In this document: piece by piece, positions 1-5,717 of the stretch | How the letters are laid out: every line of letters starts with the position of its first letter | Position numbering within the stretch: position 1 is the stretch's first letter | From: a virus | Taxonomy: Duplodnaviria > Heunggongvirae > Uroviricota > Caudoviricetes | Virus record (IMG/VR): IMGVR_UViG_2671180577_000023 | Length of the DNA: 5,717 bases | Direction: 5' to 3' (one strand) | The notes under the pieces: model-generated | Seen by the model: only the letters and a program-made list of their open reading frames with translations | Told to the model about the DNA's origin: nothing | Database searches by the model: none | Program-made: the position numbers and the translations under genes

Positions 1-97
1 TTGTCGCCCATTGTGAGTCATATTCGCCCTGACTTTCCAGAACCATACGGACTGCCCGTTGACGGACTTCAGGGGAAAAACGAGTATTTTTAGTCAT
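1..97 (-). CDS. IS3-family transposase OrfA, N-terminal 32 codons only (continues beyond window start)
   Basis: ATG at 97-95 with AGGA Shine-Dalgarno about 6 nt upstream; translation [32 protein letters not shown] matches the helix-turn-helix N-terminus typical of IS3-family OrfA. Below the ORF-track length threshold because it is partial. Confidence 0.8.
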
Positions 98-151
98 CCT
101 GTTTACCTCTTTCTCAGGAAGTTTAGTCTCCAGGATTCCCGGGGCGGTTCA
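1..151 (-). mobile_element. Left-hand partial IS3-family insertion sequence (IS629/IS1203-like): terminal inverted repeat tip at 151, element body continues left of the window
   Basis: Minus strand from 151 reads TGAACCGCCCCGGGAATCCTGGAGACTAAACTTCC, then AGGA RBS and an ATG at 97-95 opening an ORF that translates [32 protein letters not shown], a recalled IS3-family OrfA N-terminus. The same 14-nt tip TGAACCGCCCCGGG recurs at 5613 on the plus strand. Confidence 0.8.
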
Positions 152-266
152 GTGGGAGCGAGTCTGCGCCGCGCTGCGGGAGCTGAACAAGCACCGGGAT
201 ATTGTTCGACAGATTGTCGATTCATCCGGTCGTATTGTGTCGGAAAAGTGATTGCCGGAGGCGCTT

Positions 267-662
267 ATGGCGAAACCTTTTACACACGAACAGCGGGAAG
301 AACTGAAGGCACGAATTATCGGATTGGTACGCAAAAATGAACGCATGACGATATCGCAACTGGAGAGAGCGACGGGAGCAGGCTGGCATTCAGTCAGACG
401 TTGCCTTGTGGATGTACTGGCTTGTGGCGATTTATACATGTCCGGTAAATACGGTGTTTTTGCATCAGAACAGGTGTATCGCGTATGGCGTAAGACACCG
501 GAGAAAACAACTGACCAGACATTGATTCGAAAGTTACCAGACGGAGAAATTCGCCGCTACGATAGACGCCTGAACATAATCTGTCGCGAGTGCCGGAATA
601 GTGAAGTTATGCAGCGCGTGCTGGCTTTCTATCAGGGGAATTTTCAGGAGGCGGTACTGTGA
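267..662 (+). CDS. Hypothetical prophage protein, possible winged-helix DNA-binding protein (131 aa)
   Basis: ORF-track frame 252..662; the ATG at 267 is preferred because GGAGG sits 5 nt upstream. Stop TGA overlaps the GTG at 659 of the next ORF. Segment MTISQLERATGAGWHSVRRCL looks HTH-like. No family recognised. Confidence 0.6.
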   Translation: MAKPFTHEQREELKARIIGLVRKNERMTISQLERATGAGWHSVRRCLVDVLACGDLYMSGKYGVFASEQVYRVWRKTPEKTTDQTLIRKLPDGEIRRYDRRLNIICRECRNSEVMQRVLAFYQGNFQEAVL

Positions 663-718
663 GTAAATTAGCTATCAGGCTTCAATTGTCGCTGGCATTC
701 GCATCAAAGGAGAATGAG

Positions 719-1303
719 ATGACCACTTTTACAAAAGAGCAGTTAATCAGTCATGTTAGTGAAAATGTAAAGGCGATGAAATTTGCAGTAAAACAGACAG
801 CATTCAAAAATTCTCTCGAGGCAATTGAGTTGGATTTAGCACTGGCCCTTGTTGCTCAGGCTTCGCTGGAAGCAGAGCCCGTGCTTTATATGAATCGATT
901 TACCGGAAAGACATTCTCACTGGAAGAGCAACCCGGTGCTGATAAGGAACCGGAAATATACGTGCCGCTATATGCTGCCCCGCCAGACAGCGCCGCCATG
1001 CTTCAGGCTGGAAACTTTCGGGAAAAGAAGGGTTCGTCAACCAATAATTTTCGGGAAATCTCGGAAACGTCAACCAACCATCCGGTAACTCTGGATGGTT
1101 GGATAAGCTGTAGTGAGCGAATGCCGGATGACGGTCAGCACGTAATTATTTTATGTGATGGCGCATTCGTTCTTTATGCGCAATATCGAGACGGTGAGTT
1201 TTTTGATGTAGTCCGTGATGGTGATGAATTTTTCGAAACACAGAGCCGCAATGTAACCGACTGGATGCCGCTACCAGAACCGCCGCAGGAGGTGCGCCAA
1301 TGA
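719..1303 (+). CDS. Phage protein with C-terminal DUF551-like domain (194 aa from ATG 719; alternative GTG start at 659 gives 214 aa)
   Basis: ORF-track 659..1303. ATG at 719 is preceded by AAGGAG with 6-nt spacing. C-terminus WISCSERMPDDGQHVIILCDG...VTDWMPLPEPP follows the recalled DUF551 pattern common in lambdoid prophages. Confidence 0.7.
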   Translation: MTTFTKEQLISHVSENVKAMKFAVKQTAFKNSLEAIELDLALALVAQASLEAEPVLYMNRFTGKTFSLEEQPGADKEPEIYVPLYAAPPDSAAMLQAGNFREKKGSSTNNFREISETSTNHPVTLDGWISCSERMPDDGQHVIILCDGAFVLYAQYRDGEFFDVVRDGDEFFETQSRNVTDWMPLPEPPQEVRQ

Positions 1304-1383
1304 ACTGGCCTGAAGCATTTGCAATTACAGGCGTTGCTATGGCTATCACCTTTTTAGTATATGTTATTTGTCGGTGGGGGTAA
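1300..1383 (+). CDS. Small hydrophobic peptide, 27 aa (MNWPEAFAITGVAMAITFLVYVICRWG), predicted single transmembrane helix
   Basis: ATG at 1300 overlaps the TGA stop of the DUF551 gene (ATGA); AGGAGG lies 7 nt upstream. Not in the ORF track because it is under the size cutoff. Confidence 0.4.
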   Translation: MNWPEAFAITGVAMAITFLVYVICRWG

Positions 1384-1418
1384 AAACGTTCGCCGGGATT
1401 AACACCAAAGGAGGGAAT

Positions 1419-1523
1419 ATGTCGGATGATATATCACTGGCAATGGAAGGTGCGCTGGCTGTTATTGCTGTTGTGGGCGTTTACTGCCTGGTTGTGTTTT
1501 TGATGGATCGACTAGGGAACTGA
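1419..1523 (+). CDS. Small hydrophobic peptide, 34 aa (MSDDISLAMEGALAVIAVVGVYCLVVFLMDRLGN), predicted single transmembrane helix
   Basis: ATG at 1419 preceded by AAGGAGGG (1408-1415). Hydrophobic core flanked by charged residues. Not in the ORF track because it is under the size cutoff. Confidence 0.45.
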   Translation: MSDDISLAMEGALAVIAVVGVYCLVVFLMDRLGN

Positions 1524-1565
1524 ATTCATTACGATATGGGAATTCCCATATCGGGTAAAAACGGT

Positions 1566-1593
1566 TTGCGGTAAAGCGAGAGTTAAGTAGAAT
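1566..1593 (+). promoter_or_regulatory. Putative sigma70 promoter for the hok-like toxin mRNA (TTGCGG, 16 nt, TAGAAT)
   Basis: Hexamers read directly; position is consistent with a ~400-nt hok-type mRNA ending at the terminator near 2014. Confidence 0.3.
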
Positions 1594-1768
1594 TGCTGCG
1601 GGTGCTTGAGGCTGTCTGCCTCGGGCATGCCACCGTAAGGCAGACAGAGAAAAGCCCCAGTTAACATTACGCGTCCTGCAAGACGCCTAACATTAATCTG
1701 AGGCCAATTTCATGCTAGACACATGTAGGTTAGCCTCTTACGCGCCGAAAGGCAAGGAGAAGCAGGCT

Positions 1769-1924
1769 ATGAAGCAGCAAAAGGCGATGTTAGTCGCCCT
1801 GATCGTCATCTGTATTACCGTCGTAGTGACGGCACTGGTAACGAGGAAAGACCTCTGCGAGGTACGAATCCGAACCGGTCAGACGGAGGTTGCTGTCTTC
1901 ACAGCTTACGAACCTGAGGAGTAA
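1769..1924 (+). CDS. Hok/Gef-family type I toxin (51 aa, small membrane-active peptide)
   Basis: MKQQKAMLVALIVICITVVVTALVTRKDLCEVRIRTGQTEVAVFTAYEPEE has the Hok signature: N-terminal transmembrane helix then TRK.LCE.R...G..EVAAF.AYE. AAGGAG sits 9 nt upstream of the ATG. The ORF track extends the same frame to an ATG at 1712 (mok-like leader frame). Confidence 0.85.
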   Translation: MKQQKAMLVALIVICITVVVTALVTRKDLCEVRIRTGQTEVAVFTAYEPEE

Positions 1925-1992
1925 GAGACCAGGCGAGGGAGAAATCCCTCGCCACCTCTGATGTGTCAGGCATCCTCAACGCACCCGCACTT

Positions 1993-2014
1993 AACCCGCT
2001 TCGGCGGGTTTTTT
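1993..2014 (+). terminator. Rho-independent terminator ending the hok-like mRNA
   Basis: CCCGC-TTCG-GCGGG hairpin followed by TTTTTT. It is preceded at 1932-1953 by a 9-bp stem with GAAA loop (GGCGAGGGA gaaa TCCCTCGCC). Confidence 0.7.
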
Positions 2015-2133
2015 CACTTACTGTGGTTGTGAATACGATTGGTATTAGGCTATGCTAACAACATTAGCCTGACTAATTTTGTATTGACTTGATTTTTGTT
2101 AAAGAACAGGACGGAGAAGTAAGGGTACACCCA

Positions 2134-2313
2134 ATGAGCTACGCACTAAAAAAACACCCGCGATTGACTATTCCCCCTCGCGATAAAAGCGTTGTGGCAG
2201 CTCCGCGCCCGGCTATCGATGAAAATTGCACTCATCGTGAGCAGGTGAAAAATGCTTTCGATTTCGGTTTTTCTCGTTACGAGAAGGCAATGGAAGAACT
2301 TTCAAAAGTGTAA
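2134..2313 (+). CDS. Small protein (60 aa) directly upstream of the Doc-family gene; candidate antitoxin, not Phd-like
   Basis: ATG at 2134 with AAGGG 8 nt upstream; stop at 2311-2313 lies 18 nt before the Doc-like start. ORF-track frame 2089..2313 begins at a TTG. Sequence MSYALKKHPRLTIPPRDKSVVAAPRPAIDENCTHREQVKNAFDFGFSRYEKAMEELSKV shows no resemblance to Phd/YefM. Confidence 0.5.
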   Translation: MSYALKKHPRLTIPPRDKSVVAAPRPAIDENCTHREQVKNAFDFGFSRYEKAMEELSKV

Positions 2314-2331
2314 TGATGGGTATTGTGCTCT

Positions 2332-2817
2332 ATGGCTGAGATTGTTGAAGGAGTGCACTACCTTTCGTTTGATGATCTTACCGAAATTAATCGCCTTTTA
2401 ATTGAGCTTCAAACACCAGATGAACCTGTTAGTGTGCTGAGTGTTGATAATTTAAGTTCTTCTCAGTCTCGTCCCAGCATGGTTCGATGGTATGAACAGA
2501 CTAATGACATGTTTGTACTGGCATCAGTATTGATTGAAAGTCTGATTCAGAATCATCCATTTGCTAATGCAAACAAACGAACAGCTATGATGGCTGGTTA
2601 TGTCTTCTTGTTGTTGAATGGCTATGAGTTAACAGCACCAGGCGATGAAATCGTGGAAATGGCAGAGGGACTGGCCTGCAAAACCTATACTCGAGAAGAT
2701 CTCGAGAACTGGTTGTGTTATTGGTCTCGTGCGTATGACAGCCGGGAATTATGTAAAACAGGCGCAACTATTGTTTTGTATGAAACTATCAAGCTTAAAA
2801 TAGAACAGCAAAACTAA
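2332..2817 (+). CDS. Doc (death-on-curing) / Fic-fold family toxin, 161 aa
   Basis: Contains HPFANANKRTA, which fits the Doc motif H-x-F-x-(D/N)-(A/G)-N-K-R exactly. ORF-track frame 2323..2817 starts at TTG; the first ATG is at 2332. Confidence 0.8.
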   Translation: MAEIVEGVHYLSFDDLTEINRLLIELQTPDEPVSVLSVDNLSSSQSRPSMVRWYEQTNDMFVLASVLIESLIQNHPFANANKRTAMMAGYVFLLLNGYELTAPGDEIVEMAEGLACKTYTREDLENWLCYWSRAYDSRELCKTGATIVLYETIKLKIEQQN

Positions 2818-2833
2818 AGGTGCTTCTAATGAA

Positions 2834-2858
2834 AACCCGCTTCGGCGGGTTTTGTTGT
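2834..2858. terminator. Bidirectional intrinsic terminator between the convergent Doc-like and HigA-like genes
   Basis: CCCGC-TTCG-GCGGG hairpin (2836-2849) with TTTTGTTGT on the plus side and a T-run on the minus side. The hairpin and flanks (AACCCGCTTCGGCGGGTTTT) are identical to the hok terminator at 1993-2012. Confidence 0.6.
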
Positions 2859-2867
2859 ATTGGAGTA

Positions 2868-3185
2868 TCATGATATTACCTGGATCCCGTTTTTCTCTAC
2901 GACTGAAAGAAGGCGAAGAGCGGCACCTCCCGGCCGTTTTACACCACGTTCCCAGTCTGATATCAGGTTTTTACTGACGTTGAGGTATCTGGCAAAAACA
3001 GGTTGAGACAGATGCTCTCGTTCGCGCAGTGCACGGATCCTTTCCGGAGACATTACCGGCGCTGGCTGGAGACAAGTTTCATCGAATTCTCGCATAGTCT
3101 GTTTCGTTACTGCGCCGATATCATGAAGCGATTCCATCATTTCATGTACGGATGCAAGCGCATCACTGCGGTAATTTTTACTCAT
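2868..3185 (-). CDS. HigA-like antitoxin, XRE-type helix-turn-helix (COG2944-like), 105 aa
   Basis: ORF-track 2868..3185. C-terminal SPERIRALREREHLSQPVFARYLNVSKNLISDWERGVKRPGGAALRLL matches the recalled HTH antitoxin family partnered with RelE/ParE-like toxins. Its ATG (3185-3183) overlaps the stop of the upstream toxin frame (ATGAGTAA), the toxin-first order typical of HigBA. Confidence 0.8.
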   Translation of the reverse strand: MSKNYRSDALASVHEMMESLHDIGAVTKQTMREFDETCLQPAPVMSPERIRALREREHLSQPVFARYLNVSKNLISDWERGVKRPGGAALRLLSVVEKNGIQVIS

Positions 3186-3548
3186 TGGGTACCTCCGTAA
3201 ACTGACCCTGTAGAATCAGTTGTGCCAGTTGTTCATCTGTTAGATTGAGTACGTGAGGAGCCGCCTTCCGAAATGCACTTTCCGCAGTAGCGGTTATATT
3301 TTCACGTTCATTTTTTGCGTATGCATATACGAAAAAGGCCCTTGTGCCGACGCGATAGAAAATGATTGTGCGATAACCGCCAGATTTGCCGCCACCGACT
3401 CGTGGCAGACGTTGCTTGATAACGCCGTTACCCAGGTTTGCTGAGATAAGCCCGTTATCAGCCTGTTTAACAATTTCGCGCAGTGATTGGTCGGATATTT
3501 TGTTTTGCGTGCAAATCGCTCAAACCAGGCGTTTTTAAAAATGCGCAT
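3178..3548 (-). pseudogene. RelE/ParE-superfamily (HigB-like) toxin gene, disrupted by a frameshift after codon ~16
   Basis: From ATG 3548-3546 the frame reads MRIFKNAWFERFARK, the conserved N-terminus of this family, then runs into unrelated sequence (ORF-track 3294..3611). The rest of the toxin (KISDQSLREIVKQADNGLISANLGNGVIKQRLPRVGGGKSGGYRTIIFYRVGTRAFFVYAYAKNERENITATAESAFRKAAPHVLNLTDEQLAQLILQGQFTEVPNE) is intact in another frame with no start codon of its own. The break lies in the A-rich tract AAAACAAAATAT (about 3495-3506). Confidence 0.7.
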
Positions 3549-3570
3549 TTTTTGTTCCGTTATTAATGTA

Positions 3571-3585
3571 TAACACATAGTGTTA
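3571..3585. promoter_or_regulatory. Perfect inverted repeat TAACAC-ata-GTGTTA upstream of the higB-like start; candidate operator for the HigA-like repressor
   Basis: 6-bp arms with 3-bp spacer read directly; sits about 25 bp upstream of the toxin ATG in its promoter region. Confidence 0.35.
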
Positions 3586-3615
3586 CATTGCGTAGGGATC
3601 TGCAATGCCATCAGT

Positions 3616-3645
3616 TTGACAACGTCGCGTGTTCGGGGCTATATT
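3616..3645 (+). promoter_or_regulatory. Near-consensus sigma70 promoter (TTGACA, 18 nt, TATATT) driving the leader, c4-like RNA and ORF6N operon
   Basis: Hexamers read directly; the same architecture (TTGACG, 18 nt, TATATT) recurs at 5201-5230 upstream of the paralogous module. Confidence 0.6.
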
Positions 3646-3705
3646 CCTCACGCGCCAGCAAAACCTGGCGTCGGGATTAGCACCCCGGATATCGAAACGG
3701 TGCAT

Positions 3706-3726
3706 AACCGCGCTGGCGGTTTTTTT
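3706..3726 (+). terminator. Terminator-like hairpin plus T7 run in the leader, between target sites and the c4-like RNA (possible attenuator)
   Basis: AACCGC-GCTG-GCGGTT followed by TTTTTTT. The upstream CGCCAG (3653-3658) can pair with either CTGGCG copy (3665-3670 or 3713-3718), giving alternative folds. Confidence 0.45.
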
Positions 3727-3758
3727 ATGCGCTAAGCACAGTCACATTCGCGATTTAT

Positions 3759-3835
3759 GGCGGGCTGTGTGGGGGAGCCGAAAGGCTCGCCGGATGTTTC
3801 GACCGGTAGTGCTAACCCCGCACAGTTCGCCACCA
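3759..3835 (+). ncRNA. Candidate c4-like antisense regulatory RNA (~77 nt) upstream of the ORF6N gene
   Basis: A 16-bp closing helix (3759-3774 with 3816-3831) encloses a GNRA hairpin (GAGCC-GAAA-GGCTC) and two loops. Loop GTTTCGA (3796-3802) is complementary to TCGAAAC at 3692-3698 and 3873-3879; loop GTGCTAA (3809-3815) is complementary to TTAGCAC at 3677-3683 and 3842-3848. A 3-prime ACCA tail follows. The second target pair lies just upstream of the ORF6N RBS. Confidence 0.5.
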
Positions 3836-3890
3836 CGATGATTAGCACCTGACGGTGGCGAGGTAAAAATTATCGAAACGCGAGGTCATT

Positions 3891-4556
3891 ATGGCTGTTC
3901 AAATTTCTGTCGAAAACCTTTCCCCTGTTACCTATAACCAGATCCCCGTAATTACTACTGAACTGTTGGCTCACCTTTACGGAACAAAAATCAAAAACAT
4001 TTCTGATAACTTTCTGAACAACACGACGCGATTCATGCCCGGAAAGCATTACTTTAAAATTGAAAAAAACGAATTACGCGAGTTTAAGAACAGACCCGAA
4101 ACAATCGGGTTAGTTGGTAAAAATGCCCGCTCCCTCATCCTCTGGACAGAACGCGGCGCAGCCCGTCACGCAAAAATGCTCGAAACCGATCGGGCGTGGG
4201 AGGTATTCGAAAAACTGGAAGACTGCTATTTCAGCCAGGGAAAAACAGCACCAACCGAACAGCAGCCGCAGATTCAGCCACAATTCACAGCCGAAGAAAT
4301 CATCCTCCTTTGCTACATGCAGCTCTGGATGGAAAAAGCCCAGGACATCAGCAAACACCTGTATCCCATTATGAAAGAGCTGAACTCCTCATACACGAAC
4401 AAGCTGTATGACATTGCGTTTGAGACCATCTACATGGTGACGAAGAACAGAGACGCGCTACTGAGGGAGGTAACACGTCTCGACATGTCAAGTTCCGTTA
4501 TCCAGCGGGCCATGCCAATGCTGAAAAGCCTGCGGGCAAGACAATTTGAATTCTGA
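3891..4556 (+). CDS. Antirepressor-like protein with N-terminal ORF6N/KilA-N-type domain, 221 aa
   Basis: ORF-track 3891..4556; GAGG lies 5 nt upstream of the ATG. N-terminus MAVQISVENLSPVTYNQIPVITTELLAHLYGT...FMPGKHYFKIEKNELREF matches the recalled ORF6N pattern of phage antirepressors. Confidence 0.75.
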   Translation: MAVQISVENLSPVTYNQIPVITTELLAHLYGTKIKNISDNFLNNTTRFMPGKHYFKIEKNELREFKNRPETIGLVGKNARSLILWTERGAARHAKMLETDRAWEVFEKLEDCYFSQGKTAPTEQQPQIQPQFTAEEIILLCYMQLWMEKAQDISKHLYPIMKELNSSYTNKLYDIAFETIYMVTKNRDALLREVTRLDMSSSVIQRAMPMLKSLRARQFEF

Positions 4557-4560
4557 AACT

Positions 4561-4583
4561 AAAGGAGCTTCGGCTCCTTTTTT
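4561..4583 (+). terminator. Rho-independent terminator after the ORF6N gene
   Basis: GGAGC-TTCG-GCTCC hairpin followed by TTTTTT. Coordinates are approximate to within a base. Confidence 0.7.
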
Positions 4584-4610
4584 GTTGGGAAAATCCAGTG
4601 AGAGGGAATA

Positions 4611-5021
4611 ATGAACCAGACTATCTTCCTCCGAAGTAAGCAGCAGCAACAATTCGCCATTAACGCCATCCTTGCAACAACTCTCGATAAAGACAAACCC
4701 GTTACGATCCGCATCACCGATTACAAGCGGAATCTCGATCAAAATGCCAAATTTCACGCGATGGTCGCTGATATCTCCCGACAGGTTCAGTGGTGCGGCA
4801 GATGGCTAAAACCAGAACAGTGGAAAGTTTTGTTAATCAGCGGTCATGCCGTGGCGACAAAACAGGAAGCTGATGTTTTGCCTGGTCTTGAAGGTGAATA
4901 CGTCAATATCCGCGAAAGCAGTGCGCAGATGAGCGTGAAGCGTATGGCAAGCCTGATTGAGTACACAACTTCCTGGGCTGTGGAGCAGGGTGTCAGATTT
5001 ACCGACAGGAGGTATGAATGA
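4611..5021 (+). CDS. ninB: NinB-family protein (lambda NinB-like single-strand DNA-binding recombination protein), 136 aa
   Basis: ORF-track 4611..5021. Segment [33 protein letters not shown] aligns with the recalled lambda NinB core RSLDQNRKLWACLGDVSRQVEWHGRWLDAESWK. GAGGG RBS upstream. Confidence 0.8.
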
Positions 5022-5200
5022 GACGACAGCGACGAAGCATTACCGATATAGTCTGTGAAAACTGCAATTACCTTCCAACGAAACGTTCCAGAAATAAACC
5101 CAGGCCAATCCCAAAAGAATCTGACGTTAAAGCCTTCAATTACACGGCTCACCTGTGGGATATCCGGTGGCTAAGACATCGTGCGAGGAAAACAAGGTGA
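5018..5200 (+). CDS. ninE: NinE-family protein, 60 aa
   Basis: ORF-track 5018..5200. Start overlaps the ninB stop (ATGA). [60 protein letters not shown] matches the recalled lambda NinE sequence closely. Confidence 0.75.
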
Positions 5201-5230
5201 TTGACGTGATGATTTATTCGGGGCTATATT
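5201..5230 (+). promoter_or_regulatory. Sigma70 promoter (TTGACG, 18 nt, TATATT) of the second leader / c4-like / ORF6N module
   Basis: Same spacing and -10 as the promoter at 3616-3645. The downstream 40 nt (TTCCTCACGCGCCAGCAAAAYCTGGCGTCGGGATT) are nearly identical between modules. Confidence 0.55.
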
Positions 5231-5291
5231 CCTCACGCGCCAGCAAAATCTGGCGTCGGGATTGGCGTCCTGGATAGAGACCGCGACAGAT

Positions 5292-5314
5292 ACACGCCGC
5301 GAGCGTGTTTTTTA
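5292..5314 (+). terminator. Terminator-like hairpin plus T-run in the second leader (counterpart of 3706-3726)
   Basis: ACACGC-CGCGA-GCGTGT followed by TTTTTT. Sequence differs from module A but structure and position are conserved. Confidence 0.5.
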
Positions 5315-5344
5315 TTGTCGTATGCACGCGCACATCTGAATTAT

Positions 5345-5420
5345 GGTGGGCTGTGTGGGGGCGGAGAGATCCGCGCCGGTCGGTTTCCCGGTTACGCCAA
5401 CCCTGCACAGTTCACCACCA
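5345..5420 (+). ncRNA. Second candidate c4-like antisense RNA (~76 nt), diverged paralogue of 3759-3835
   Basis: Same architecture: 16-bp closing helix (5345-5360 with 5401-5416), GNRA hairpin GCGGA-GAGA-TCCGC, two recognition loops, ACCA tail. Loop ACGCCAA (5394-5400) is complementary to TTGGCGT at 5262-5268 and 5426-5432; loop GGTTTC is complementary to GAAACC near the RBS (5453-5458). Confidence 0.5.
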
Positions 5421-5474
5421 GACGATTGGCGTCGTCGGTGGTGAGTTATTAAGAAACCACTCGAGGGCGTCATT

Positions 5475-5615
5475 ATGACAACTCAAATCTCTGTTGAAAC
5501 ACTCTCCACGATTACTTACAAGCAGATCCCCGTTATCACTACCGAACTTTTGGCGCACCTTTACGGCACAGAAGCTATTCGTATTCGCCAGAATCACCAC
5601 GAAAACAAAGGTTGA
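5475..5615 (+). pseudogene. Second ORF6N antirepressor-like gene, truncated after codon 46 by the IS insertion
   Basis: GAGGG RBS then ATG at 5475; MTTQISVETLSTITYKQIPVITTELLAHLYGTEAIRIRQNHHENKG parallels the first 46 residues of the 3891..4556 protein. The frame stops at TGA 5613-5615, which is the first three bases of the IS terminal repeat. Confidence 0.75.
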
Positions 5616-5717
5616 ACCGCCCCGGGTTTCCTGGAGAGTGTTTTATCTGTGAACTCAGGCTGCCAGATCATCGTTTCCGATGGAAGCATAATAAGCTTTT
5701 TCTGCTTCTGCCGGAGG
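5613..5717 (-). mobile_element. Right-hand partial IS3-family insertion sequence (IS629/IS1203-like): terminal repeat at 5613, body continues past the window end
   Basis: Plus strand from 5613 reads TGAACCGCCCCGGGTTTCCTGGAGAGTG, sharing its first 14 nt with the repeat at 151 and diverging after, as expected for the opposite end of the same IS. Same orientation as the left copy. Confidence 0.8.
5655..5717 (-). CDS. IS3-family transposase OrfB, C-terminal 20 codons only (continues beyond window end)
   Basis: Minus-strand frame reads PPAEAEKAYYASIGNDDLAA then TGA (plus 5655-5657), ending about 40 nt inside the terminal repeat, the usual layout for an IS3-family OrfB. Confidence 0.55.
   Translation of the reverse strand, partial: PPAEAEKAYYASIGNDDLAA

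Follow-up and report, generated by a model that had tools for sequence, protein, structure and literature searches.

Insertion sequence ends bracketing a prophage segment in an Escherichia coli draft contig: an ordinary assembly pattern with probable separate IS629/IS1203-type insertions

The stretch of viral DNA analyzed here (5,717 nucleotides, hereafter the window) begins and ends in pieces of an insertion sequence (IS), which raises the question of whether the DNA between them constitutes a mobile unit bounded by two IS copies or a piece of resident prophage lying between separate insertions. The results presented below establish that the bracketing is real at both junctions, yet that a draft assembly is expected to give this look to any DNA flanked by two IS copies. 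The region itself is the early-right/nin part of a resident lambda-like prophage in an IS-rich E. coli isolate, and the features identified in it are as follows.

1-151, minus strand: left-end stub, nt 1-151 of a 1,310-bp IS629/IS1203-type IS3-family element (151/151 identity to the IS copy of E. coli ML35, L002:2501-2651)
127-151, no strand assigned: IRL, the 25-nt terminal inverted repeat pairing with 5613-5637 (inverted repeat I1, 92% complementary)
152-251, plus strand: 3' remnant of a DUF1627 gene cut by the left IS (aligned to the intact ML35 gene, L001:7331-8101)
267-1303, plus strand: DUF977 gene (267-662) and DUF551 gene (719-1303) (Pfam; in the same order in ML35 and many other genomes)
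1600-1924, plus strand: hok/sok type I toxin-antitoxin system, with a sok RNA match at 1600-1774 and hok at 1769-1924 (Rfam RF01794, 116.9 bits; PF01848 HOK_GEF)
2134-2817, plus strand: 59-aa ORF (2134-2313), a candidate antitoxin without a family match, and Doc/Fic-family toxin (2332-2817; PF02661 Fic, E = 2.9e-11)
2868-3516, minus strand: RelE/HigB-like toxin (3178-3516; PF06296 RelE, E = 5.5e-36) and, downstream of it, HTH antitoxin (2868-3185; PF01381 HTH_3, E = 1e-7)
3632-4556, plus strand: first immunity-type module (Rfam RF03163, RF01394 and RF01695, all above gathering score; Pfam)
4611-5200, plus strand: ninB (4611-5021) and ninE (5018-5200) (PF05772, PF05322)
5217-5615, plus strand: second c4-a1b1/isrK/C4 module (5224-5422) and start of an antirepressor gene, ant (Rfam; ML35 alignment)
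5613-5717, minus strand: right-end stub, nt 1206-1310 of the IS629/IS1203-type element (105/105 identity to L002:3706-3810)

Two ends of one IS3-family element

Both stubs match a single IS, the 1,310-bp ML35 copy (L002:2501-3810), at a level far beyond chance. Positions 1-151 of the window are the reverse complement of nt 1-151 of that element and positions 5613-5717 that of nt 1206-1310, which bears out the earlier note's description of two same-orientation IS3-family copies, both on the minus strand and with their tips at 151 and 5613. As that note also held, the left stub carries the N-terminus of OrfA, with its start codon at 97-95 and the first 32 codons (97 to 2) reaching the contig edge, and the right stub the C-terminus of OrfB, whose final 20 codons and stop occupy 5717-5655 (translated as PPAEAEKAYYASIGNDDLAA, followed by the stop); the IRR of this stub spans 5613-5637. 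The tips of both stubs begin TGAACCGCCCCGGG..., the IRR tip of the IS reads TGAACCGCCCCGGGTTTCC, and the two inverted-repeat arms (127-151 and 5613-5637, separated by 5,461 nt) match at 23 of 25 positions, forming the imperfect terminal inverted repeats with 5'-TG...CA-3' ends that characterize the IS3 family.

In ML35 the element is present at full length, with ends that match the stubs at 100%; this copy encodes an HTH_Tnp_1 OrfA (E = 6e-13) and an HTH_21 plus rve OrfB (E = 5e-28), and presents TG...CA ends together with an A7 slippery run at nt 373, in keeping with an orfA/orfB -1 frameshift; its RefSeq annotation is IS3 family transposase with programmed frameshift. Database matches at 100% identity are annotated as IS3 family transposase for the left stub and as IS3-like element IS1203 family transposase for the right one. 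The possibility that the stubs derive from different IS species was discarded, since both are 100% identical to one IS and the IRL stub of the right copy is identical to that of the left copy. The proposal of direct repeats of about 1.3 kb thus holds as regards the identity of the IS and its direct orientation, with the length extrapolated from the visible 151 nt of the left copy and 105 nt of the right copy.

A resident segment in its native prophage order

The interior of the window (152-5612) is identical at 5,461 of 5,461 positions to, and collinear with, an IS-free prophage in E. coli ML35, which demonstrates that the DUF1627 and ant genes were interrupted in their native positions and that nothing was rearranged. 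The remnant of DUF1627 begins with the last base of codon 224 and continues through codons 225-256 to a stop at 249-251, and the empty site in the ML35 gene reads ...caggtccagaa/GTGGGAGCG (the slash marks the junction position here and below). At the opposite end, the first 46 codons of the second antirepressor gene (5475-5612) are closed in frame by a TGA from the IS tip (5613-5615); the intact ML35 gene (L001:13325-14008) encodes 227 aa, and a look-up in the protein collection found the exact 46-aa truncated product recorded on seven contigs.

The earlier note's description of the segment as rich in toxin-antitoxin and immunity functions is well founded, with hok/sok, the Doc/Fic pair, the RelE/HTH pair and two c4-RNA/antirepressor modules. 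RefSeq names the ML35 counterpart of hok as hokD and the Doc/Fic toxin as a death-on-curing family toxin. The first immunity-type module contains c4-a1b1 targets and an isrK-like RNA (3639-3726), a C4 antisense RNA (3753-3837) and an ORF6N/P22_AR_C antirepressor gene (3891-4556). A check of the suggestion that the segment might be rearranged relative to the standard lambdoid gene order went against it, as the segment is collinear with ML35 and O104:H4-type prophages, and all 19 further contigs and genomes that we retrieved for this prophage group share the order CII-O-P-DUF1627-DUF977-DUF551-hok-Doc-HTH/RelE. When the DUF977 protein was looked up, every context returned was long and free of IS.

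Among 5,426 complete E. coli genomes, none has the left, the right or the outer-right junction, so that the full structure is unreadable from a finished genome. The 32 complete E. coli genomes covering at least 80% of the window all match only 151-5612. Draft assemblies are the only record of the host, a small E. coli clone. The window corresponds to one complete contig, CYAX01000107.1 of the draft short-read assembly GCA_001285865.1, and the IS stubs hence lie at the points at which assembly halted on meeting a multicopy repeat; because the IS is multicopy, the assembly could not cross it and every contig ends in an IS stub, which in the window and all related contigs reaches 79-153 nt into the IS. 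ISMapper reportedly addresses such breaking of short-read contigs at multicopy IS, and the window presents the same phenomenon: its ends extend only slightly into the IS, and a second contig of the assembly is capped by identical stubs; we found no difference from it. The order and orientation of contigs linked in this way via identical IS copies are not fixed by the junctions alone.

Junctions of the right and left copies

For the right copy, both ends are present in the source assembly. The contig CYAX01000113.1 (L008) opens with the same 151-nt IRL stub, after which ant resumes at a point 7 bp downstream from where the window has its right junction, and beyond this stub the contig is 100% identical to ML35 for 4.9 kb. 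Its far end is a 153-nt IRL stub of a third IS copy, in the opposite orientation, 5 kb rightward in a SASA esterase gene. In the sibling assembly GCA_001285245.1, one contig (L004) carries the same ...AAAGGT/IRR junction and another (L013) reads IRL/GGTCGTTTCA; together they define a perfect 3-bp GGT target duplication at the ant site, which establishes the right copy as a simple insertion. The source assembly presents at this copy, in place of a target duplication, a 10-bp loss. The source lineage would later have lost these 10 bp (GGTCGTTTCA) beside the IRL of the right copy, probably by slippage at a TTCA microhomology. A metagenome scaffold considered as a further carrier of the right junction (L005) was rejected, as it ends in intact ant (AAAGGTC). 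IS3-family elements interrupt the same ant gene elsewhere along its length in other strains.

The right copy adjoins the 10-nt target GGTCGTTTCA, which, aligned in tandem register, shares 8 of 10 positions with the tip of the copy itself, GGGCGGTTCA, and the unit lost in the source lineage is exactly this tip-like 10-nt sequence. Recognition of end-like targets has reportedly been described for IS911 without OrfA. That the right copy reflects end-like target recognition by the IS629 transposase, followed by an end-associated deletion, is very doubtful in our estimate, and weaker still is the idea of an excisable or amplifiable IS-bounded cassette.

The earlier note had read the different inner flanks of the two copies, GTG (152-154) and GGT (5610-5612), as a sign of independent insertion. 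These flanks differ under every scenario, so their difference is no test; what is informative is the two sides of each copy. On this basis independent insertion is sustained for the right copy, by the GGT duplication in the sibling, and is probable for the left copy. An in-situ left insertion would join ...CCAGAAGTG on the DUF1627 side to the IRR tip TGAACCGCCCCGGGTTTCC, and a simple insertion with GTG repeated would give the outer junction ...CAGGTCCAGAA(GTG)/TGAACCGCCCCGGGTTTCC. This outer-left junction, in which the N-terminal part of DUF1627 is joined to IRR, was not found by protein, IMG/VR or neighbor look-ups. We predicted 15 truncated DUF1627 products, for offsets of -6 to +10 in both frames with a stop within the stub, and looked them up by exact match. 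All were absent from a collection of 15 billion proteins, with the exception of a 222-aa contig-end partial product in an unrelated assembly (L014); the remaining three junction-specific products of the source and sibling assemblies are present in this collection. At one third of the possible offsets the frame stays open to the end of the 105-nt stub and would escape gene calling, which makes the absence of DUF1627 products weak evidence. A gapped pattern for this junction, allowing 0-30 nt, produced no matches in IMG/VR, where the DUF1627 sequence immediately upstream of the left site occurs at 13 loci, with the site intact in all 13, and look-ups of upstream neighbor proteins, made to reach the upstream contig, showed only assemblies with intact DUF1627. 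Contig L014 ends 6 nt before the left insertion site, which fits a repeat junction at that site, given that SKESA-style contigs likewise break off 3-12 nt before reaching the ant site.

Origin and meaning of the bracketed segment

Together, these results lead us to assign a probability of roughly 80% to separate IS629/IS1203 insertions into one lambda-like prophage, with the contig ends as repeat-induced breaks. The element (IS3 family, copy-out/paste-in) would have inserted separately at codon 224 of DUF1627 on the left, after codon 46 of ant on the right, and a third time in the SASA esterase gene 5 kb further right, and the left copy would be full length and a separate simple insertion. Homologous recombination between the direct copies could in principle delete 6,771 bp (the segment plus one IS), a generic possibility of which no product was seen.

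It is unlikely, on our assessment, that the left IS is instead a terminal remnant, or that its outer side was altered by an IS-mediated adjacent deletion or inversion, such that it is followed outward by DNA other than the 5' part of DUF1627. The missing canonical partner junction points in this direction, as the products expected for a 3-bp (GTG) duplication, a 4-bp duplication and 13 other offsets are absent and the gapped IMG/VR scan lacks matches; so do the secondary 10-bp loss already present at the right copy in the same genome, the third, oppositely oriented copy 5 kb to the right, which would permit inversions, and the 26 of 47 IS629 copies in O157:H7 without a matching duplication (PMC3271280). 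Against it, a third of the offsets is uncallable, which weakens the argument from absent products, the segment and the right flank contain zero SNPs relative to ML35, an indication that the prophage was intact until recently, and the end of L014 at 6 nt before the site fits a repeat junction there. Far less probable is a layout in which the ends at 151 and 5613 belong to one physical IS copy, in an excised circle of 6,771 bp or a tandem amplification (IS-segment-IS-segment-IS). The orientation, with IRL at one end and IRR at the other on the same strand, is compatible with this arrangement, and short-read junctions cannot tell it from two separate copies; nevertheless, the IRR of the window and the IRL of L008 and L013 lie at one ant target site, with the GGT duplication in the sibling, so that the partner of the right stub is the downstream contig rather than the left stub. 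The occurrence of the window's contig in several assemblies fits stable chromosomal inheritance, and a circle with such content would be without replication genes.

The classical composite transposons Tn9/IS1, Tn10/IS10 and Tn5/IS50 consist of two IS copies bounding cargo. The window resembles them in that two copies of one IS flank the cargo and the outer ends would make up a valid pair, but it differs from them in that the cargo keeps its ancestral position, a separate duplication belongs to the right copy, and there is neither a sign of movement as a unit nor a shared outer duplication. The inner ends of both copies are present and the outer IRL of the right copy lies on L008; the outer left IRR was not found, nor was a single duplication outside both IS or a second genomic context. 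That IS-segment-IS (8,081 bp) moved as a unit into its present place is therefore already contradicted and has a next to negligible probability: the valid IRL/IRR pair that its outer ends would form and its cargo of addiction and immunity modules favor it as structural arguments only, whereas the segment lies exactly where the IS-free prophage has it, the next prophage genes are 100% identical on the following contig, the duplication at the right copy in the sibling marks a single-IS insertion, and among the genomes and contigs retrieved the segment never occurs outside this prophage context. The composite-transposon-like unit envisaged in the earlier note accordingly shows no sign of movement, its segment being in native position at 100% identity to IS-free ML35, and the IS stubs at both contig ends are an ordinary known pattern and not a new mobile unit.

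The preferred reading, separate insertions into one prophage, agrees with what is known of IS629 in O157:H7, where 62% of copies lie within prophages and 3-4 bp duplications are found at 21 of 47 copies (PMC3271280). The element described here, as represented at full length in ML35, resembles IS629/IS1203 in the lambdoid prophages of O157:H7 and Shigella in its length (1,310 bp), TG...CA ends, 25-nt imperfect inverted repeats and OrfA/OrfB frameshift, as well as in its prophage bias, the frequent lack of 3-4 bp duplications and positions that vary between sibling isolates, but the two insertions differ from known ones in their sites, DUF1627 codon 224 and ant codon 46, which are occupied in 0 of 5,426 complete E. 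coli genomes. As regards method, double-ended IS stubs are the default signature of a repeat break, and a composite transposon reading requires the outer junctions. The significance of the locus beyond annotation is limited. Separate insertions would disable the DUF1627 and ant genes, and the analysis adds three previously uncatalogued IS629/IS1203 sites, at which the DUF1627, antirepressor and SASA esterase genes of one prophage, probably crippled as a result, are truncated, and demonstrates that IS positions vary between sibling isolates.

IS ends and the IS-free prophage

The ends of the window were compared with a full-length 1,310-bp element of E. coli ML35 (L002:2501-3810). This element has TG...CA termini, contains an A7 slippery run and encodes an OrfA with HTH_Tnp_1 and an OrfB with HTH_21 and rve.

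1-151, minus strand: left IS stub, reverse complement of nt 1-151 of the 1,310-bp IS (151/151 identity)
5613-5717, minus strand: right IS stub, reverse complement of nt 1206-1310 of the same IS (105/105 identity)

On translation, the left stub holds the OrfA start and 32 codons and the right stub the last 20 OrfB codons and stop, and the tips pair as an imperfect 25-nt inverted repeat (127-151 and 5613-5637; 92% complementary) whose arms are 5,461 nt apart. Exact matches in RefSeq are named 'IS3 family transposase, programmed frameshift' or 'IS3-like element IS1203 family transposase'. The earlier note's observation was thereby confirmed: the window has two minus-strand stubs, tipped at 151 and 5613, from a single IS3-family species, and they match the two ends of one IS629/IS1203-type element at 100%.

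A 46-aa reading frame (5475-5615) stops in the IS tip, and exact look-up of its product revealed that the window is identical to the entire 5,717-nt contig CYAX01000107.1 of GCA_001285865.1 and is therefore a complete draft contig, the IS stubs being the points where the short-read assembler met a multicopy repeat. The same product occurs on seven contigs, the longest of 5,717 nt, and IMG/VR holds a near-identical 5,715-nt contig with both junctions; among these contigs and in IMG/VR, no assembly spanning the left or right IS was found.

Positions 152-5612 are identical (5,461/5,461) to the lambda-like prophage of ML35, in which the order is cI, cro, cII, O-like, P-like, DUF1627, DUF977, DUF551, hok, Doc pair, HTH/RelE pair and ORF6N antirepressor, followed by ninB, ninE, ant, KilAC antirepressor, a DUF1364 (YbcO) gene, rusA, ninH and Q. 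The left IS interrupts the DUF1627 gene (256 codons) within codon 224, and the right IS interrupts the antirepressor gene ant (227 codons) after codon 46. The order from cII to the HTH/RelE pair recurs in the retrieved contigs and genomes of the prophage group, including an O104:H4 genome, over the stretch covered. Comparison with IS-free relatives, proposed earlier as a check for rearrangement, thus revealed none in the window; no complete genome was found to match past 151-5612.

Outer junctions of the two copies

To locate the outer junction of the right copy, the C-terminal ant fragments expected past the IS were predicted as a gene caller would report them and then looked up. A 153-aa fragment led to CYAX01000113.1 (L008; 5,237 nt), from the same assembly as the window, which starts with the 151-nt IRL stub exactly as in the window, joined to TTGAGGAAAAAC...; this sequence is at ML35 position 13470, which lies 7 bp further downstream than the last unique base of the window. 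Past the stub, L008 is 100% identical to ML35 over 4.9 kb, and both ends of the right copy are therefore present in the genome, on the correct strands and at one site. In this source assembly the target duplication is absent and seven target bases are gone. A 213-aa fragment with the junction peptide ...SRGGS-G-RFIEEK led to the sibling assembly GCA_001285245.1, where the ...AAAGGT|IRR junction recurs unchanged on one contig (L004) and another (L013) has IRL|GGTCGTTTCATTGAGG. The sibling thus has a clean 3-bp GGT duplication, the signature left by simple insertion of an IS3-family element; target duplications of 3-4 bp are reported for IS629 (PMC3271280). Set against the loss in the source, this duplication indicates that the source lineage inherited the insertion and then lost 10 bp, GGTCGTTTCA, beside IRL, probably by slippage at TTCA microhomology, since the lost unit ends in TTCA, as does the IS tip.

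The right IS adjoins this 10-nt target (window 5603-5612; L013:71-96; L008:142-157), which resembles the tip GGGCGGTTCA at 8/10 positions in tandem register; it is kept in the sibling with its GGT duplication, and exactly these 10 nt are gone in the source. At a fixed register, a match this good would arise by chance with a probability of ~4e-4, though it was noticed post hoc.

For the left copy, truncated DUF1627 products were predicted at 15 junction offsets (-6 to +10, including the canonical 3-bp and 4-bp duplications), in the two frames terminating within the stub. DUF1627 proteins of the siblings are the same as that of ML35, which makes these predictions sound. None was found in the protein collection as a junction product, an absence that is weak evidence because one third of the offsets give an uncalled ORF; that collection does contain the three remaining junction products from the same assemblies. 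A 222-aa DUF1627 match was rejected as a contig-end partial from another assembly, where the contig breaks off 6 nt short of the site. In IMG/VR, a gapped junction pattern together with a scan of the flanking region returned only intact sites, and neighbour-protein look-ups did not find the source-assembly contig expected to carry the DUF1627 5' part.

Cargo and the composite-unit reading

The account of the cargo as toxin-antitoxin and immunity functions holds. We detected sok RNA and hok (Rfam 116.9 bits; PF01848), a 59-aa ORF with a Doc/Fic toxin, a RelE-family toxin with its HTH partner, and two c4-a1b1/isrK/C4 RNA modules, each upstream of an ORF6N antirepressor gene.

3632-3989 and 5217-5573: paralogous control modules, ~360 nt each, 75-92% identity, flanking ninB-ninE

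Each comprises c4-a1b1 target sites with an isrK-like RNA, a C4 antisense RNA and the start of the ORF6N antirepressor gene, like the P1 immI or Gifsy isrK control units, here duplicated either side of ninB-ninE. All these cargo modules belong to the ordinary accessory content of the prophage group, and IS-free genomes have them in an identical order. An identical 20-nt GC-rich hairpin with T-run (AACCCGCTTCGGCGGGTTTT) lies at 1993-2012 and 2834-2853, just before and after the 59-aa ORF and Doc/Fic pair, which is therefore bracketed by one terminator-like element, moron style. The DUF551 gene contains two adjacent 32-nt imperfect direct repeats (1013-1077; 75% identity, 33-nt spacing) encoding a repeated NFREK/NFREI stretch.

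These data are best read as a very common IS having inserted several times, separately, into a resident prophage that is seen here through a fragmented assembly. The earlier note had instead proposed a composite-transposon-like unit; its observation and its points on cargo and a single IS species stand, but the composite unit fails where it can be tested, with the cargo in its ancestral place, the right neighbour carrying on the prophage sequence with 100% identity, and a duplication of its own at the right copy. The differing flanks (GTG and GGT), taken as a sign of independent insertion, do not discriminate, because the inner flanks of two copies differ in any scenario. Homologous recombination between direct repeats of a presumed 1.3 kb, with deletion or circularisation and a 6,771-bp product, is textbook-plausible; the product was not observed, and the possibility is not specific to this locus. 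The feature is real, but its biology is already known and assembly accounts for part of it.

IS activity across related prophages

A third IS629/IS1203 copy, in opposite orientation, is represented by a 153-nt IRL stub ending L008 (L008:5085-5237), inside the gene for a SASA-family esterase, downstream of Q; four assemblies contain the truncated 536-aa product of that gene. As the contigs are linked by identical IS copies, one of which is inverted, junctions alone do not fix the order and orientation of the pieces. The sibling is without this copy and instead has an IS600-family end joined at window 3779/3780, within the gene for the first C4 antisense RNA (3753-3837); this 102-nt stub (L004:1-102) matches elements with an IS600-family annotation at 100%. 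The DUF1627 gene is intact in CYAY01000077.1, from another assembly of the same submission series. IS positions therefore differ between close relatives, which fits the published behaviour of IS629, with 62% of copies in O157:H7 in prophages and prophage sites varying between strains (PMC3271280).

Other E. coli strains harbor independent IS3-family insertions elsewhere in the same ant gene and in the DUF1627 genes of related prophages (L006:1-493, L009:1-493, H122, H31-H37), suggesting that these prophage genes are hit repeatedly by IS3-family elements. The third, inverted copy would permit IS-mediated inversion of the region.
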